Virus record (IMG/VR): IMGVR_UViG_3300017913_001833
Coordinates: 1 to 64,000 of that record
Reading direction: 5' to 3' (one strand)
Length of the DNA: 64,000 nt
Origin: a virus
Taxonomy: Duplodnaviria; Caudoviricetes
Positions 5,091 through 63,587 of this stretch are shown here, in pieces. The position numbers were made by a program, and so were the translations under genes. The first letter of the stretch is position 1. Every line of letters begins with the position of its first letter. Under the pieces are notes generated by a model. It saw nothing but the letters and a program-made list of their open reading frames with translations, ran no database searches and was not told the DNA's origin.

Positions 5091-5570
5091 ATGGCATATT
5101 ACAGCACAAAAACATACGGACACAACATTGGACTTTCAGCGGTGTTCCGTCAACCACACGCAGATCATTCACACTGTAGATTTTTACATGGATACAGTCT
5201 AGCATTTAAATTTACATTTGGTGCAAGTGATTTAGATCATAGAAACTGGGTACAAGACTTTGGAGGACTTAAACCTTTGAAGCAATGGCTCGAAGATACA
5301 TTTGATCACAAGACAGTTATTGACATGCATGATCCAATGAAGGATGAGCTGTTGTTGTTAGAAACAAAAGGACTAGCACAGATAGTACAACTTGAAGGTG
5401 TTGGTGCAGAACGTTTTGCATATCACGCTTGGAACTTCGCAAACGAACTTGTACAGAAAGATACACAAGGGCGTGTTTGGTGTGAAAGTGCAGAGTGTAG
5501 TGAACACGGAGCAAACAGTGCAATCTACACACCTTATACTTGGCAGAAGACAACGTTTGTAGATGGCTAA
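5091..5570 (+). CDS. queD: 6-carboxy-5,6,7,8-tetrahydropterin synthase
   Basis: HCRFLHGY, DFGGLK, FDH, GAE and E-H motifs of the QueD/PTPS T-fold family. Confidence 0.9.
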   Translation: MAYYSTKTYGHNIGLSAVFRQPHADHSHCRFLHGYSLAFKFTFGASDLDHRNWVQDFGGLKPLKQWLEDTFDHKTVIDMHDPMKDELLLLETKGLAQIVQLEGVGAERFAYHAWNFANELVQKDTQGRVWCESAECSEHGANSAIYTPYTWQKTTFVDG

Positions 5571-54324: not shown

Positions 54325-56994
54325 ATGAGTTACGTAGACGCTTTCTTTGATCGCGATTCTGATATTATTCGTGTTGTAGAACGCAAAGATGGTAAAAGAC
54401 ATTTCCACGAATATCAAGCAAAATACACATTCTATTACAAAGACGAACGTGGCAAATACAAAAGTGTATATGGTGATCCACTAACACGTATCGTATGTAA
54501 AAACACCAAAGACTTCCGCAAAGAAGTTGCAATCAACAAAGATAAAAAACTTTTTGAAAGTGATATCAATCCAATCTTTCAATGTTTGAGTGAAAACTAT
54601 CTTAATCAAGATGCACCCAAACTTAACATTGCGTTTTTCGATATTGAGACTGACTTTGATCCAGAGCGTGGCTTTGCTGATCCAAGTGATCCTTTTATGC
54701 CAATTACATCAATATCTGTGTATTTGCAATGGATGGAAACAATGGTATGTTTGGCAGTGCCGCCTAAGTCACTAACAATGGATCAAGCAAAAGAAACACT
54801 TGCTGGCATAGACAATGTTGTATTGTTTGAAAAAGAAAGTGAAATGATTGACACGTTCTTAAACTTGATTGAAGATGCAGATATACTATCAGGTTGGAAC
54901 AGTGAAGGTTATGATATTCCGTATACTGTAAACAGAACAAGTCGCGTATTGAGTAAAGATGACACAAGACGTTTTTGTTTGTGGGGGCAGTTGCCCAAAA
55001 AACGTGAATATGAAAAGTATGGGAAAACAGCTGAAACCTATGACTTCATAGGCAGAGTGCATTTAGATAGTTTGGAATTATATCGTAAATACACATATGA
55101 AGAAAGACACACATATAGACTTGATGCTATCGGTGAAATTGAAGTTGGCGAAAACAAAGTCCCTTATGAAGGCACTTTGGATCAATTGTACAACAATGAC
55201 TTTAGAAAATTCATCGAATACAACATACAAGATACCGCACTACTGGACAAGCTGGACAAAAAACTAAGATTTATTGATCTTAGTAACAGCATTGCACACG
55301 AAAATACTGTGTTGCTACAGACCACTATGGGTGCTGTTGCAGTTACAGAACAAGGTATTATCAACGAAGCACACAACAGAGACTTGCGTGTTCCTAATCG
55401 TCCAAAGCGTGATGATGAAAGCACAGCGGCAGCTGGTGCGTATGTTGCGTTTCCTAAGAAGGGCTTGCACAAATGGATTGGCTCAATGGACTTGAACAGT
55501 CTGTATCCAAGTGTTATTAGAGCTCTTAACATGGCTCCTGAAACAATCGTTGCACAAATACGTCCAGAGATTTCCGAAGGGCGTGTACACGAAGATATAA
55601 CGCTTAAGAAGAAGTCATTTGCAGGCAGTTGGGAAGGACGTTTTAGTACAGAAGAATATGAAGCAGTTATGGAGCAACGCAAGGATATTGCACTAACTGT
55701 TGATTTTGAAAACGGCGACACTGAAGTTATGAGCGGGGCCGAACTATATAAAATAATCTTTGACAGTAACGTACCGTGGATGCTTAGTAGTAATGGCACA
55801 ATCTTTACAACAGAGTTTGAAGGTGTTATTCCGGGTATTCTAAAACGTTGGTATGCAGAACGTAAAGACATGCAGAAGATGTTAAAGAAAGCCAAAGAAG
55901 CAGAAAATCAAGCTGAGATTGAATACTGGGATAAGCGACAGCTGGTTAAGAAAATTAATTTGAACAGCTTGTATGGTGCTATTCTTAATCCTGGTTGTAG
56001 ATTCTTTGATAAACGTATTGGACAATCTACTACACTTACAGGTAGAACTATTGTTAAACATATGAGTGCTGAAGTAAACAAAGTTATCACAGGCACATAT
56101 GATCATGTTGGTGAAGCAATGATATATGGTGATACAGATTCTTGTTACTTTAGTGCATATCCAACACTACGCAGTGAAATTGACAATGGTAATATTCCGT
56201 GGAGCAAAGATAATGTAATTACACTGTATGATCAAGTGTGCGAAGCGGCTAACACAACATTTCCAGACTTTATGGCTCGTGCTTTTCATTGTCCAAAGAG
56301 CCGTTCAGATGTTATTGCCGCAGGTAGAGAAATTGTTGCTGAAAGCGGATTGTATATTACAAAGAAACGCTATGCGGCACTGGTGTATGATGTAGAAGGC
56401 TTCCGTTCGGATACAGATGGCAAGCCAGGCAAAGTAAAAGCAATGGGCTTGGACTTGCGTAGATCAGACACACCTGTGTTTATGCAAGAGTTTTTAAGTG
56501 AAGTGCTGATGATGGTACTGCAAGAAACGAGTGAAAAAGAAATACTTGATCGTATCACTGAGTTTCGTAGAGAGTTTAAACAGCGGCCTGGCTTTGAAAA
56601 AGGTGCTCCAAAACGTGCAAACAAGATTGGACACTATCAACGTCTTGAAGAGAAGCAAGGTAAAGCAAACATGCCTGGACATGTAAGAGCAAGTATCAAC
56701 TGGAACACACTCAAGCGTATGAATGGCGACAAGTATTCGCAAGAGATTGTAGATGGAATGAAAGTTATTGTATGCAAACTAAAACAAAATCCACTAGGCT
56801 ATACAAGTGTTGCGTATCCAACAGACGAACTACGTATTCCAGATTGGTTTAAAGAACTTCCATTTGATGATGACGCAATGGAGGCAACTATCATTGACAA
56901 CAAGCTAGACAACTTGATTGGTGTGTTGAACTATGATTTAGATAGCACAAAACAAAACAATACGTTTAGCAGTTTATTTGATTTTGGAGGTTAA
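54325..56994 (+). CDS. polB: Family B DNA polymerase (gp43-like) with 3'-5' exonuclease
   Basis: DIET, WNSEGYD, YNIQD; DLNSLYPS, KINLNSLYG, YGDTDS, KKRY. Confidence 0.96.
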   Translation: MSYVDAFFDRDSDIIRVVERKDGKRHFHEYQAKYTFYYKDERGKYKSVYGDPLTRIVCKNTKDFRKEVAINKDKKLFESDINPIFQCLSENYLNQDAPKLNIAFFDIETDFDPERGFADPSDPFMPITSISVYLQWMETMVCLAVPPKSLTMDQAKETLAGIDNVVLFEKESEMIDTFLNLIEDADILSGWNSEGYDIPYTVNRTSRVLSKDDTRRFCLWGQLPKKREYEKYGKTAETYDFIGRVHLDSLELYRKYTYEERHTYRLDAIGEIEVGENKVPYEGTLDQLYNNDFRKFIEYNIQDTALLDKLDKKLRFIDLSNSIAHENTVLLQTTMGAVAVTEQGIINEAHNRDLRVPNRPKRDDESTAAAGAYVAFPKKGLHKWIGSMDLNSLYPSVIRALNMAPETIVAQIRPEISEGRVHEDITLKKKSFAGSWEGRFSTEEYEAVMEQRKDIALTVDFENGDTEVMSGAELYKIIFDSNVPWMLSSNGTIFTTEFEGVIPGILKRWYAERKDMQKMLKKAKEAENQAEIEYWDKRQLVKKINLNSLYGAILNPGCRFFDKRIGQSTTLTGRTIVKHMSAEVNKVITGTYDHVGEAMIYGDTDSCYFSAYPTLRSEIDNGNIPWSKDNVITLYDQVCEAANTTFPDFMARAFHCPKSRSDVIAAGREIVAESGLYITKKRYAALVYDVEGFRSDTDGKPGKVKAMGLDLRRSDTPVFMQEFLSEVLMMVLQETSEKEILDRITEFRREFKQRPGFEKGAPKRANKIGHYQRLEEKQGKANMPGHVRASINWNTLKRMNGDKYSQEIVDGMKVIVCKLKQNPLGYTSVAYPTDELRIPDWFKELPFDDDAMEATIIDNKLDNLIGVLNYDLDSTKQNNTFSSLFDFGG

Positions 56995-59217: not shown

Positions 59218-59968
59218 AGGTTACATAGGTAGCCACTTATTAAAACGCCTTAAGAAAAATCACAGTATAGTTGGTTTCGATTTACAAGATGGTTGGGATC
59301 GTGACAAATTAAACAACAGTCAAGATTTAATGACGTGTGAATTGCCTGAAGAATTTGATTTAATTATTCACTTAGCAGGTAAAAGCGGAGTACGTGAAAG
59401 CATTAATGATCCTGCGGCATATTGGCGTAACAATGTTGAAGTGAGCAAACGCTTGTTCGAAAGATATCCAAACACACGTATTATGTATGCAAGTTCTAGC
59501 AGTGCTTACGAACCAGATCTAAATCCTTATGCGGCAAGCAAGTATTGTGTAGAAGAAGCTGCTGAACGTAATGTTGACACACTTGGTATGCGTTTCCATA
59601 CAGTGTATGATCACAATCCGCGCAAAGGTATGTTTGTACAAAAACTAATTGATGGTGAATTAGAATATGTTACAGACCATTATAGAGATTTCATCCACAT
59701 AGATGATTTGTGTGATGCAATAGAACTACTCATGCAGAGTAGATATTCGGGAACAGTTGACATAGGCACAGGACAACCTTTCCTTATCCGTGATTTTGCA
59801 CCAGACTTACCCATCCGTCTAAATACACCGAATGAACGTAAATGGACATGTGCAAATATGGAAAGGATGAGAACTTTAGGCTTTAATCCTAAACATTCAA
59901 TAGAAAAACTCTTGACAAACAACAAGTTAGGCAATATAATAAACTTTACAAATGGAGAAACATTATGA
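59192..59968 (+). CDS. NAD-dependent epimerase/dehydratase
   Basis: TGHRGYIG, HLAG..GVRES, ASSSS.Y, YAASK, RF.TVY. Confidence 0.88.
   Translation: MHIMLTGHRGYIGSHLLKRLKKNHSIVGFDLQDGWDRDKLNNSQDLMTCELPEEFDLIIHLAGKSGVRESINDPAAYWRNNVEVSKRLFERYPNTRIMYASSSSAYEPDLNPYAASKYCVEEAAERNVDTLGMRFHTVYDHNPRKGMFVQKLIDGELEYVTDHYRDFIHIDDLCDAIELLMQSRYSGTVDIGTGQPFLIRDFAPDLPIRLNTPNERKWTCANMERMRTLGFNPKHSIEKLLTNNKLGNIINFTNGETL
59912..59940 (+). promoter_or_regulatory. Consensus sigma70-type promoter
   Basis: TTGACA-N17-TATAAT. Confidence 0.8.
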
Positions 59969-60693
59969 AAGATATCTTACAAGACATGGTAGCTCATACA
60001 CACTCGCTGGGCTTCCTATCATTAGTAAAAGTTACTAATGAAGATGGCACACAGATTGACAGCATGGCTGAAGATCGCAGTGTTATTTTAAGTGCAGAAA
60101 CACACGCACCTGTAGCAGAGTTCAAAGGTACGTTTGGTATGCCAAACTTAGATAAACTAAGTTTGCATTTGAAAAATCCTGAGTATCAAAAAGATGCAAA
60201 GATTGATGTTGTTGAAGCAGATCGCAACGGTGAAGTTGTTCCAACACACATACATTTTGAAAACGCAACAGGCGATTTCCAAAATGATTATCGCTTTATG
60301 AACAAAGCAATTATTGAAGAAAAACTTAAAACTGTAAAGTTCAAAGGTGCTAACTGGAACGTAAGTTTTTCTCCTAGTGTTGCGGCAATTGGTCGTATGA
60401 AGTTACAAGCACTTGCACATTCAGAAGAGCCTACATTTAACGTAAGTTCAAACAATAATGATCTTGTGTTCAGCTTTGGTGATGCAAGCACACACGCAGG
60501 AAGTTTTGTATTTGAAGCAGGTGTTGAAGGTACACTTTCACATACATGGAGTTGGCCTGTAGCACAAGTACAAGCAATCTTGAATTTAGATGGTGATAAA
60601 ACAATGAGCATTTCAGATCAAGGTGCAATGCAAATCACAGTAGACAGTGGCATGGTCAAGTATGATTACATACTGCCTGCACAAAGTAAGTAA
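59965..60693 (+). CDS. Putative DNA sliding clamp (gp45/PCNA-like)
   Basis: 242 aa; two-domain beta/alpha pattern; PCNA-like C-terminus G...YDYILPA; clamp loader and PolB also present. Confidence 0.6.
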   Translation: MKDILQDMVAHTHSLGFLSLVKVTNEDGTQIDSMAEDRSVILSAETHAPVAEFKGTFGMPNLDKLSLHLKNPEYQKDAKIDVVEADRNGEVVPTHIHFENATGDFQNDYRFMNKAIIEEKLKTVKFKGANWNVSFSPSVAAIGRMKLQALAHSEEPTFNVSSNNNDLVFSFGDASTHAGSFVFEAGVEGTLSHTWSWPVAQVQAILNLDGDKTMSISDQGAMQITVDSGMVKYDYILPAQSK

Positions 60694-61311: not shown

Positions 61312-61456
61312 AAAACAGGCCAGAAGCGATTATAGGCAAATGCGAAAAGATGATCCAGTGTTTGCTGAATGTTGGCCTGACAAAGATAGAAGTTTTTATG
61401 AATGGTGCTCTCAATATTTAGATTACCAACATATTAAGGATAAAAATGAAGACTGA
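61301..61456 (+). CDS. Small hypothetical protein, 51 aa (not in ORF track)
   Basis: MITEKQARSDYRQMRKDDPVFAECWPD...; fills the gap. Confidence 0.5.
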   Translation: MITEKQARSDYRQMRKDDPVFAECWPDKDRSFYEWCSQYLDYQHIKDKNED

Positions 61457-62900
61457 TTTAACCACTGAACAAAAAGATTATGCACGTTTCCTTCCTGCAC
61501 TAAGTGGCTTTTATGCTACGTATGTTGGTAAACAACGGCATGATGAATACGTGGAAAAGTCCAGAATACCTAGCAATCTTACCCATGGTGTCGAAAGTTT
61601 AAACTATCTTAACGCACAACAAGGACAGTTCCAATACAAATGGAGTTTGTATAGTGCTGGACATGCAGATTTAGATACAACTAAATTTGTAGCAAAAGAA
61701 GATATGGTGCGTAACAGAGATAGAGACAACACTTGGTTACTTGGTGACTCAGGTGGATTCCAAATTGGTAAGGGTGTTTGGGAAGGTGACTGGAAAGATC
61801 CAAACTGTCCAAAGGCACAAAAGAAACGTGATGGCGTTCTTAAGTGGATGGACGCATACATGGACTATGGAATGATCCTTGATATTCCGGCTTGGGTTTC
61901 ACGTTCACCAGAAGGTGCAAAAGCAACAGGGATTAGCACATATGCAGAAGCAGTAAAAGCAACACGCATTAATAATGATTATTGGATGAAGCACAGAACA
62001 GGTGCTTGTAAGTTCCTAAATGTTCTCCAAGGGGAAAACCATGCTGATGCAGATGATTGGTATCAGCAGATGAAGGATTATTGTGATCCTAAAAAATATC
62101 CAAATGATCATTTTAACGGTTGGTCAATGGGTGGGCAGAATATGTGTGATGTTCATCTTGCACTCAAGCGTCTTGTTGCACTACGCTTTGACGGATTACT
62201 AGAGAAAGGCGTACATGACGTTATGCACTTCTTGGGTACATCTAAATTAGAGTGGGCTACACTACTTACAGATATTCAACGTGCCGTAAGGAAATATCAT
62301 AATGAAAACTTTACTATCACATTTGATTGTGCTTCGCCTTTCCTCGCAACCGCTAATGGACAGATCTACTGTGAACTTGAAACTCAGGACAGAACTAAAT
62401 GGGTATATAGAATGGTTCCGAGTATCGATGATAAGGCACTTGCAAAGGACACGACACCATTCGGACAAGCATTTGTTAGAGAAGGTAAACATCCGAGCTT
62501 CATGGACAGCCCAATAACAGCTGAACTTATGGCTAAAGATATTTGCATATATGGACCAGGCGACCTAAATAAAATAGGTAAAGAAGGTAAAACATCATGG
62601 GATAGTTTTAGTTATGCAGTTATGATGGGACATAATGTATGGATGCATATCAATGCAGTACAAGAAGCAAACAGACAATACGATGCAGGTGTATTGCCTG
62701 CAATGCTTGTAGAAGAACGCTTTGATAGATTGTATTTTAAGGATGTTGTAGAAGCAATATTTGCAACATCAAACAGAGACGAAGCAAACGCAGTCATTGA
62801 AGAATTTAGTAAGTTTTGGATGAGCATCATTGGTACACGTGGTGCAACTGGTAAGAAAACTGTAAACGCACAGACAAAATTTGGGGAGTTGTTTGAATGA
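61446..62900 (+). CDS. dpdA: TGT-family transglycosylase, probable DNA 7-deazaguanine insertase (DpdA-like)
   Basis: DSGGFQ, MILDIP, VLQG, GWSMGG, HFLG, FDCASP; no tRNA-TGT CxCxxC Zn motif; queD in the same genome. Confidence 0.8.
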   Translation: MKTDLTTEQKDYARFLPALSGFYATYVGKQRHDEYVEKSRIPSNLTHGVESLNYLNAQQGQFQYKWSLYSAGHADLDTTKFVAKEDMVRNRDRDNTWLLGDSGGFQIGKGVWEGDWKDPNCPKAQKKRDGVLKWMDAYMDYGMILDIPAWVSRSPEGAKATGISTYAEAVKATRINNDYWMKHRTGACKFLNVLQGENHADADDWYQQMKDYCDPKKYPNDHFNGWSMGGQNMCDVHLALKRLVALRFDGLLEKGVHDVMHFLGTSKLEWATLLTDIQRAVRKYHNENFTITFDCASPFLATANGQIYCELETQDRTKWVYRMVPSIDDKALAKDTTPFGQAFVREGKHPSFMDSPITAELMAKDICIYGPGDLNKIGKEGKTSWDSFSYAVMMGHNVWMHINAVQEANRQYDAGVLPAMLVEERFDRLYFKDVVEAIFATSNRDEANAVIEEFSKFWMSIIGTRGATGKKTVNAQTKFGELFE

Positions 62901-63085
62901 CACAAGAAACTTATCTTGAAAGCCTATATCGGAAACATAGAACACTTGACGATGAGATAAAAATGTTGTATAATAAGTTTGCAAGTGATGATTTAATAAA
63001 TCGTAAAAAAACACAAAAACTTTGGTTAAAAGATGAGATACACAGGATAGAAAATGAAACGGGATTATCAAGACGGCATTCATGA
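62897..63085 (+). CDS. DUF465/YdcH-like coiled-coil protein
   Basis: L...H..LD.EI......KK.KL.LKDEI. Confidence 0.75.
   Translation: MTQETYLESLYRKHRTLDDEIKMLYNKFASDDLINRKKTQKLWLKDEIHRIENETGLSRRHS
62946..62974 (+). promoter_or_regulatory. Possible internal sigma70-type promoter
   Basis: TTGACG-N17-TATAAT. Confidence 0.5.
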
Positions 63086-63587
63086 AAAAATGTGCTACTT
63101 CACTGGCTATGAAGTAGAAAAGACTCCTGCCTATGGAATGAAGACATTGTTTGTCGAAGGTGTACAAGACACTGACGAAATAATGACATTTTTAACAAAA
63201 GAAAAATGCACACATCTATTCTTTGGCGCTAATCACAGTTTCAATCCTGGAACTAACTTTCCAGATGATGGTGATGAATGGCGTGAATGGGAAGACATGA
63301 TCGAAGAGTTTCTTCGCGAAGGATATCTTTGTTCACTTGATATTCCTATTGCACTTGCTGAAGCATTTTTAGAATCAGGCTTAACAGAGTATGACAATTT
63401 TATTCCGCAGTTGCGTGTTCCGGTGCCTTACATCCGACAGTGGAATTACAACACTATGTTGAAAATTGACGACAAAGACTTTAAGGCATCTAATCCAGGC
63501 GTCTGGTGTCATAGACTGCACAATCTACAAGATGATGAAAAATTCACTGATTGGGCAAAGTATGGCCTTGACAAGCCGCTATTGTGA
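63054..63587 (+). CDS. Hypothetical protein in the dpdA neighbourhood
   Basis: G.EVE.TP..G..TLFV, FFGANHSF, KIDD.DF..SNPGVW. Confidence 0.7.
   Translation: MKRDYQDGIHEKMCYFTGYEVEKTPAYGMKTLFVEGVQDTDEIMTFLTKEKCTHLFFGANHSFNPGTNFPDDGDEWREWEDMIEEFLREGYLCSLDIPIALAEAFLESGLTEYDNFIPQLRVPVPYIRQWNYNTMLKIDDKDFKASNPGVWCHRLHNLQDDEKFTDWAKYGLDKPLL

Follow-up and report, generated by a model that had tools for sequence, protein, structure and literature searches.

We propose that a marine giant phage encodes a divergent DNA transglycosylase of the tRNA-guanine transglycosylase (TGT) fold, which is docked by its C-terminal peptide on the sliding clamp of the phage itself; for this proposal as a whole we estimate a probability of roughly 0.6. 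A clamp tether had been put forward in an earlier note on this DNA, and it draws support here from the predicted folds of the enzyme and of the clamp, the presence of 7-deazaguanine pathway genes, the conservation of the enzyme's tail, the pairing of this tail with that of the phage polymerase across lineages, and the pocket in which the tail is placed by a modelled complex. All the computational checks that might have overturned it came out in its favor.

Organization of the replication module

The window (i.e., the whole stretch of DNA analysed, 64,000 nucleotides) covers the beginning of a viral contig of 146 kb in IMG/VR, from a marine giant phage; the completeness of the contig was estimated at ~39%, a limitation of the evidence presented below. 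The closest relatives of its family B DNA polymerase (PolB), at 42-50% identity, belong to jumbo phages, e.g., Phosso, Atu_ph07 and the RaK2 group. The replication module is entirely encoded on the + strand, being PolB followed by a TauD-family gene, three sugar-nucleotide genes and the gene of a 242-aa clamp protein, and then by small ORFs, a PsiE-family gene, the gene of a 484-aa protein, a DUF465 gene and the gene of a 177-aa protein (Table 1). Within this module, the 484-aa gene is preceded by the clamp gene, and the FEN/clamp-loader genes come after it. Its downstream neighbour is also found elsewhere; at the related locus L087, a homologue 33% identical to the 177-aa protein (E 3e-35) directly follows a 32%-identical transglycosylase.

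The promoter-like site upstream of the clamp gene displays a perfect sigma-70 consensus (TTGACA, 17 nt, TATAAT), and no terminator-like site was found on the + strand between this site and the transglycosylase gene, in agreement with the earlier description of the dpdA-like gene as lying downstream of the clamp-gene promoter. The T4-type late promoter TATAAATA, searched as a candidate, had 0 matches in the window.

Table 1. Features of the window related to the proposed clamp-docked transglycosylase.
Feature	Position (nt)	Strand	Basis
QueD/PTPS-family gene, 7-deazaguanine precursor pathway	5151..5531	+	PF01242, E 1.3e-14
Family B DNA polymerase (889 aa), T4 gp43-like	54325..56994	+	PF00136, PF03104; phrog_262, E 7e-199
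Polymerase C-terminal peptide F881-F887 (F-S-S-L-F-D-F)	56965..56985	+	Read directly
Sigma-70 consensus promoter-like site, upstream of clamp gene	59912..59940	+	12/12 consensus match only
Predicted sliding clamp subunit (242 aa), PCNA/gp45 type	59965..60693	+	Fold; phrog_12062
TGT-fold, DpdA-like transglycosylase (484 aa)	61446..62900	+	Fold, motifs, context
Linker, residues 461-478, predicted disordered	62826..62879	+	Model, family comparison
C-terminal peptide F479-E484 (F-G-E-L-F-E), proposed clamp-docking motif	62880..62897	+	Conserved in family
177-aa protein of unknown function, conserved downstream neighbour of transglycosylase gene	63054..63587	+	No Pfam match

The 484-aa protein displays a transglycosylase fold

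At the sequence level, the 484-aa protein matched no model in Pfam, PHROGs or NCBIfam; phmmer with the protein, and a search with its family profile, retrieved no TGT or DpdA chain from the PDB, and PF01702 had no match in the 146-kb contig at E values up to 10. Since all these searches failed, the protein was named by fold search alone. Its AlphaFold model (pLDDT 93.2, pTM 0.91) was compared to the PDB with Foldseek, and the matches listed were all tRNA-guanine transglycosylases (best E 3e-7). A second structural aligner, independent of Foldseek, gave Z scores of 19.6 for archaeosine TGT (arcTGT), 18.6 for QTRT2, 17.4 for bacterial TGT, 16.3 for the DNA preQ0 insertase DpdA (7ui4) and 15.1 for Cap10, with unrelated TIM barrels at 11.7 or less; the fold is at least as near to the tRNA enzymes as to DpdA.

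The family to which this protein belongs is very large: clustering at 90% identity gave >7,700 groups, and at 50% there were 956 representatives. When 62 of its members were aligned, we observed a G-D-S-G-G-F-Q motif and the invariant residues D101, S102, G104, D146, H261, G264 and D294, so that, as judged from the sequence alignment, exactly three aspartates (D101, D146 and D294) are invariant; D101 lies within the motif and is followed four residues later by F105, the same spacing as Asp95-Phe99 of bDpdA. The structural study of bDpdA described three active-site aspartates invariant in TGT and DpdA, serving as general acid/base, in base recognition and as nucleophile, with an aromatic residue four positions after the first (PMC10164549). 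Conversely, the Zn site C-x-C-x-x-C...H, conserved across the DpdA family (PMC10164549), is absent from our family alignment, which has no conserved Cys cluster and, in the region of the canonical site, only C367 (66%) and H396 (87%) conserved. By sequence, the protein could be assigned to no named DpdA subfamily. Neither the family profile (A1, E up to 1) nor PF01702 had matches in Campylobacter CP220 and Cellulophaga phiST, and the DpdA3 genes, CGPG_00065 in phiST, were not located.

Pathway genes and the likely substrate

Besides the QueD/PTPS-family gene of the window, the 146-kb contig encodes FolE and a QueE-like radical-SAM protein, and a weak match to QueC was also obtained; its other products include an HhH-GPD protein, a FEN-type nuclease and a phosphoribosyltransferase. 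Pathway genes were also identified in relatives, namely QueC and FolE at locus L085, QueE in phage PA5oct, and QueF, QueC and FolE in Vibrio phage 2.275.O. The DNA of PA5oct is resistant to several restriction enzymes with G-containing sites (PMC12191111, preprint), and a comparative study of jumbo phages listed PA5oct with a deazaguanine synthesis and incorporation system (PMC7824862), by which a transglycosylase had previously been inferred in this phage. Further, all the phages and viruses with 7-deazaguanine synthesis genes in another study also encode a DpdA-type insertase, with modification levels ranging from <0.1% to 100% according to the DpdA subfamily and with insertion proposed to be post-replicative (PMC10516641).

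From the TGT fold, the motif and the genomic context, we infer that the 484-aa protein is a DpdA-like transglycosylase, DNA being its presumed substrate by context. The label given in the earlier note, DpdA-like, is a functional one, and found no counterpart in any DpdA or TGT sequence model. A protein that modifies tRNA or some other substrate, with a tail unrelated to DNA modification, would be in line with the Z scores, slightly higher for arcTGT, QTRT2 and bacterial TGT than for DpdA; however, the location of the gene inside the replication module, the resistance of PA5oct DNA at G-containing sites and the constant co-occurrence, in the set of PMC10516641, of synthesis genes with a DpdA-type insertase argue against it, and we consider such a substrate improbable.

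The 242-aa protein corresponds to a PCNA/gp45-type clamp

The 242-aa protein had no match in Pfam. Its model (pLDDT 91.3) aligned over its full length to PCNA (Z 17.9) and to T4 gp45 (6drt; Z 16.0), and its structural scores displayed a clear gap between clamps and unrelated chains. This identifies the protein as the two-domain subunit of a trimer-type clamp.

A conserved C-terminal peptide on a variable linker

The two C-termini on which the earlier note was based were confirmed by reading the sequence, PolB ending in K-Q-N-N-T-F-S-S-L-F-D-F-G-G (nt 56950-56991) and the 484-aa protein in N-A-Q-T-K-F-G-E-L-F-E (nt 62865-62897). The note had described both as Q..FxxLF; their common core is [FY]-x-x-[LF]-F with acidic residues after it, whereas the spacing of the Q differs between them and the Q itself is unconserved in homologues. 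The spacing of the PIP box, Q-x-x-[LIM]-x-x-[FY]-[FY], is found in neither tail. When the last 12 residues encoded by each of the 162 putative genes on the contig were screened for [FY]xx[LF]F, PolB and the transglycosylase alone displayed it.

In the AlphaFold model of the transglycosylase, residues 466-479 alone fall below a pLDDT of 50. The linker contains a segment, I-I-G-T-R-G-x-T-G-K-K, which is invariant in the near clade, while elsewhere its length and sequence vary widely. The tail peptide, with a near-clade consensus of [FY]-x-N-L-F-[ET]-E, is kept in relatives down to ~30% identity although their linkers differ. For a quantitative assessment we considered 114 representatives of 50%-identity clusters whose match extends to the end of the barrel: [LMF]F was present within the last 10 residues in 43 of them, compared to 9.0 +/- 2.9 (maximum 18) in 200 shuffles of the tails. 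About 20 further representatives keep FxxLF followed by an acidic extension, the motif thus being internal. Conservation among homologues, on which the earlier note had made its proposal depend, extends therefore to distant members and is far above the shuffled level. Motif-free members of the 62-sequence alignment retain the catalytic residues, and for this reason the tail can be regarded as an add-on module.

Regarding the motif-free members, integrase genes adjoin those at loci L088 and L101, where no clamp or PolB gene is visible; these are short contigs, and the observation is a mere hint. Scans of IMG/VR with the distant members P0131 and P0162 yielded no further loci, several other contigs were too short to reveal the gene context, and Pseudomonas phage PIP was left out because its record is fragmented by frameshifts.

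Gene order and paired tails across lineages

The order PolB ... clamp, transglycosylase is nearly universal in 80 IMG/VR loci (68-92% identity), in which the clamp and transglycosylase genes often abut; PolB ends in TF[NS]SLF[DE]F in ~70 related loci. More distant phages display comparable arrangements: PA5oct, whose transglycosylase, EST35_0316, is 36% identical, has PolB, clamp, a small ORF and transglycosylase, with QueE further on, and the same PolB-clamp-transglycosylase order was found in Vibrio phage 2.275.O and at locus L085, the latter with a transglycosylase 32% and a clamp 33% identical to those of the window. In six lineages, moreover, PolB and the transglycosylase of a given phage end in similar tails (Table 2). 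The pairing is imperfect, as loci L048 and L077 show L to F or L to M in one tail only.

Table 2. Comparison of the C-termini of PolB and transglycosylase in six lineages.
Phage or locus	PolB tail	Transglycosylase tail
Window	SLFDF	ELFE
PA5oct	DSLFGW	NSLFDV
Vibrio phage 2.275.O	DLFDW	DLFGW
Phosso	DLFTF	GLF
L085	KMFTF	KLFDF
L071	NFFEF	NFFE

The strict motif has three fixed positions, and by a rough, uncomputed estimate ~0.5 matches would be expected in 162 proteins, so a likeness of two short C-termini could in principle arise by chance; nevertheless, conservation in the 114 representatives far above the shuffles, added to the pairing of tails in six lineages, makes coincidence a very remote explanation. 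The peptide might also act on behalf of the enzyme itself, e.g., to inhibit, oligomerise or fold it, in which case it would resemble the polymerase tail through convergence on a generic hydrophobic-acidic end. The invariance of the near-clade linker segment in a region predicted to be disordered is in keeping with such a role, and docking may for this reason not be the sole function of the tail; in addition, some family members lacking the motif keep their catalytic residues. On the other hand, the tail is predicted to be disordered and detached from the barrel, the peptide persists across clades while the linker varies in length and sequence, the transglycosylase tail is similar to that of the polymerase in each of the six lineages, and unrelated DpdA1 enzymes adjoining beta-type clamps likewise end in LF-COOH (see below). 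Taken together, we judge a purely self-serving tail to be unlikely, and favor a docking peptide.

A modelled complex places the tail in the client pocket of the clamp

The clamp trimer was modelled together with the last 30 residues of the transglycosylase, both supplied as alignments, as a follow-up of a check suggested in the earlier note. The complex scored 0.69, compared to 0.05 for the best of 3 controls, and thereby passed a mark that is reached by 58 of 80 solved complexes and by 2 of 110 mismatched pairs; when an unrelated protein was substituted for the clamp, the score was 0.00. The runs shared at least 44% of contacts, and the pLDDT of the peptide partner was low (49-64). In the model, residues 475-484 of the transglycosylase contact clamp residues 37-41, 124-129, 219-221 and 236-242, where 124-129 correspond to the interdomain connector and 236-242 to the C-terminal strand and tail, i.e., the peptide was placed in the canonical client site. 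Given that clamp-peptide complexes have already been solved, the pass may partly reflect memory or likeness; the model favors binding and falls short of showing it. Since its flexible tail ends in the same type of peptide as the phage polymerase, the transglycosylase is probably tethered to the phage's own sliding clamp.

A related alternative is that the tail docks on another partner shared with the polymerase, such as the host beta clamp, SSB, the clamp loader or a helicase. An L-F end is common to this motif and to bacterial clamp-binding motifs, and partners of the host beta clamp use the Q-L-[SD]-L-F type; the T4 gp43 tail has a second mode of binding to gp45 (PMC2988020); and the phage clamp was the single candidate partner covered by our modelling. 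Against these considerations, the phage's own clamp gene lies immediately upstream in nearly all relatives, the control in which an unrelated protein replaced the clamp scored zero, and the motif is closer to the tail of the phage's own polymerase than to a fixed host consensus. We thus hold a different partner to be rather unlikely, although of the alternatives considered it is the one to which we give most weight, and the phage clamp remains the preferred one.

Proposed mechanism and its significance

According to our proposal, the 484-aa enzyme would swap guanine in phage DNA for a 7-deazaguanine base, supplied by the phage FolE, QueD and QueE. The disordered linker would present a short hydrophobic-acidic peptide, similar in type to the end of the family B polymerase, and this peptide would dock in a hydrophobic pocket of the trimeric PCNA/gp45-type clamp, located on its C-face between the interdomain connector loop and the clamp C-terminus. 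Once the phage clamp loader has placed clamps on phage DNA, these might carry the enzyme along the newly made duplex, and riding the clamp would provide both processive access to DNA and a bias to replicating phage DNA. From the evidence presented above we infer that the tail would physically bind the clamp, that base exchange would be coupled to replication and that the enzyme would be selective for phage DNA.

How a post-replicative base-exchange enzyme locates phage DNA, and how it can modify a large part of the guanines in a single infection cycle, is unexplained in the DpdA literature searched. A full-text search of the DpdA and deazaguanine literature, including PMC10516641 and PMC10164549, found no link between DpdA and a clamp, and the impression stated in the earlier note, that this mechanism had not been described for DpdA, agrees with this outcome. 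If correct, the clamp tether would constitute a concrete and testable mechanism for targeting and efficiency. It would also bring a DNA hypermodification enzyme into the "tool-belt" of the phage clamp, with a parallel in eukaryotes, where DNA methylation and uracil removal are PCNA-tethered. Modified phages would then have a weak spot, given that their DNA should be exposed to restriction if the clamp pocket were blocked. Since PA5oct is culturable and displays the same arrangement, the idea is directly testable.

Comparison with known systems

In phage T4, the proteins gp43, gp55 and gp33 bind gp45 through interchangeable hydrophobic-acidic C-termini carried on variable linkers (PMC2988020). 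The transglycosylase resembles the clients of T4/RB69 gp45 (gp43, gp55, gp33 and T4 DNA ligase) in having a polymerase-type C-terminal peptide on a variable linker, and the clamp of the window, as modelled, would be a trimer of two-domain subunits like gp45. Two differences were observed: this clamp has no match in Pfam and is distant from gp45 in sequence, and its proposed client is a DNA base-exchange enzyme, a class absent from the client lists in the literature searched.

With respect to DpdA (7ui4; DpdA1-4; PMC6884629, PMC10516641, PMC10164549), the 484-aa protein shares the TGT-type TIM barrel, the DSGGFQ-type motif, the association with folE, queD, queE and queC-like genes, and the presumed role in inserting 7-deazaguanine into DNA; three aspartates are invariant in its family alignment, as many as are described for DpdA. 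It differs from DpdA in matching no sequence model and in having no CxCxxC...H zinc site, and from DpdA1 also in being ~100-170 residues longer. The bacterial enzyme bDpdA requires a ParB-like ATPase, DpdB, whose modelled dimer encircles a tunnel of sufficient width for duplex DNA (PMC10164549). No ParB_N domain (PF02195) was found in the 146-kb contig or in the complete PA5oct genome, and the comparison suggests that the replicative clamp might stand in for DpdB in these phages.

Similar arrangements were found in DpdA1 phages, of which we examined 9g, CAjan, Iggy, Vibrio AL-2, Stenotrophomonas Bhz54, Microcystis Me-ZS1 and Rhizobium RHEph06. In these genomes dpdA is followed by a beta-type clamp gene, either immediately or after one or two small ORFs, and the DNA polymerase gene comes next after the clamp, with small ORFs intervening in two phages. 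Their DpdA1 proteins end in L-F-COOH, with the exception of 9g, which has two extra acidic residues; the 120 clusters closest to the 9g DpdA all end in [IV]-[QR]-E-L-[FYL] or L-Q-D-L-F-D-[DE]. The DpdA of Dp-1 ends in Q-R-R-L-F and is encoded two genes from dnaN. Conversely, in the two DpdA2 phages examined, Rosebush and Sour, the enzyme has a ParB-like neighbour and no LF tail, and in Cellulophaga phi3ST:2 an N-L-F-COOH end is displayed by the ParB-like neighbour instead of DpdA.

The bacterial beta-clamp motif Q-L-[SD]-L-F is found in Pol II, Pol IV, UmuC, MutS and Hda, and in MuC of phage Mu (PMC12867686). The tails of DpdA1 and Dp-1 (Q-E-L-F, Q-M-E-L-F, Q-R-R-L-F) resemble this motif and adjoin phage beta-type clamp genes. 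The transglycosylase peptide of the window shares with it the L-F end and the extreme C-terminal location that the beta-clamp motif often has; unlike it, this peptide has no Q at the canonical position, and the predicted partner is a clamp of the PCNA/gp45 type. A broader reading, which we advance tentatively and at somewhat less than even odds, is that DNA 7-deazaguanine transglycosylases have a general need for a partner that encircles DNA: this would be DpdB for bacterial DpdA and DpdA2, and a clamp reached through a peptide in at least two unrelated phage lineages, namely the jumbo-phage family on PCNA/gp45-type clamps, and DpdA1 (Queuovirinae) together with Dp-1 on beta-type clamps. On this reading, riding such a partner would tie base exchange to replication, which might account both for the preference for phage DNA and for the large differences in modification level between DpdA subfamilies.

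A functional analogy comes from eukaryotes. DNMT1 and UNG2 are replication-coupled enzymes for DNA modification and repair that carry PCNA-binding peptides. The phage enzyme differs from both in that its motif is not a PIP box and its chemistry would be base exchange instead of methylation or excision; by analogy with them, it would constitute a DNA-modifying enzyme that uses a short linear motif for the replicative clamp and processes DNA just behind the fork.

C-terminal regions of the transglycosylase family

The linker of the DpdA-like transglycosylase is predicted to be disordered, yet its segment I-I-G-T-R-G-x-T-G-K-K is invariant in 30 sequences of the near clade, its close relatives. 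In the modelled complex this segment is also set against the clamp, and it may provide a larger docking surface or bind DNA. Further, beyond the F-x-x-L-F peptide, a second C-terminal motif is conserved in many members of the family, namely an acidic extension with an end of roughly [DE]-x-K-L-x-x-L-E-[DN]-E-Q-L, which may constitute a docking site for a second partner; the window's own transglycosylase does not have it.

The tails of both the polymerase and the transglycosylase at L071, one of the compared loci, display F-F, with L-F elsewhere. At this locus the clamp is only 38% identical to that of the window and the transglycosylase 72%, and it is possible that clamp and client peptides changed together. 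Regarding family members devoid of the tail motif, integrase genes adjoin both of those with some genomic context (L088 and L101), and neither a clamp nor PolB is visible around them in these short contigs; taken together, these neighborhoods suggest temperate or integrative elements.

Further genes on the contig

The 177-aa protein has a 33% identical homologue at L087, equally placed after a transglycosylase of 32% identity, and is a conserved partner of the transglycosylase gene. A phosphoribosyltransferase also occurs within the deazaguanine clusters of L085 and L105. The product of the 470-aa ORF, with its hydrophobic-acidic tail, could be an additional clamp client. The promoter-like site is the second of the sigma-70 type noted in the window.

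Features of the window, its 146-kb contig (G000:C1) and compared loci
Feature	Position	Description
Transglycosylase linker	window 62826-62879	contains the invariant segment
177-aa protein	window 63054-63587	downstream of transglycosylase gene; no Pfam match
Homologue of 177-aa protein	L087:1498-2022	
Sigma-70 promoter-like site	window 62946-62974	near-consensus (11/12); just downstream of transglycosylase gene, within DUF465 ORF
Purine-type phosphoribosyltransferase and HhH-GPD glycosylase-like protein	G000:C1:65676-66612 (= L089:2877-3813)	between transglycosylase gene and folE/queE
470-aa ORF	G000:C1:100009-101421 (-)	tail F-P-E-M-K-D-I-F-K-D-V
Locus with F-F tails	L071:9222-9953 and neighbors	
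Acidic-extension carriers	L004:8995-10617	also L017, L018, L023 and other IMG/VR loci; proteins P0121, P0125, P0134, P0136, P0141
ParB-like protein, phi3ST:2	L114:4103-4567	adjoins DpdA

Comparison with known DpdA systems

In phages 9g, CAjan, Iggy, AL-2, Bhz54, Me-ZS1, RHEph06 and Dp-1 (L094-L100, L107), a phage beta-type clamp gene lies one to three genes downstream of a DpdA1-type gene, whose product ends in L-F-COOH, with two acidic residues added in 9g; this type of end is kept in 120 of the 120 closest clusters of 9g DpdA. Among the polymerases adjoining beta-type clamp genes (L094-L100), all five N-termini read (9g, CAjan, Bhz54, Me-ZS1 and RHEph06) share the motif G-[FML]-F-W-[EQD]-D within their first 12 residues, which could be these enzymes' own clamp-docking peptide. 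The DpdA2 proteins of Rosebush and Sour have a ParB-like neighbor and no tail of the L-F-COOH type. In Cellulophaga phage phi3ST:2, DpdA itself has no L-F tail, whereas N-L-F-COOH forms the C-terminus of the adjoining ParB-like protein; a gene for a beta clamp is located about 2 kb downstream.
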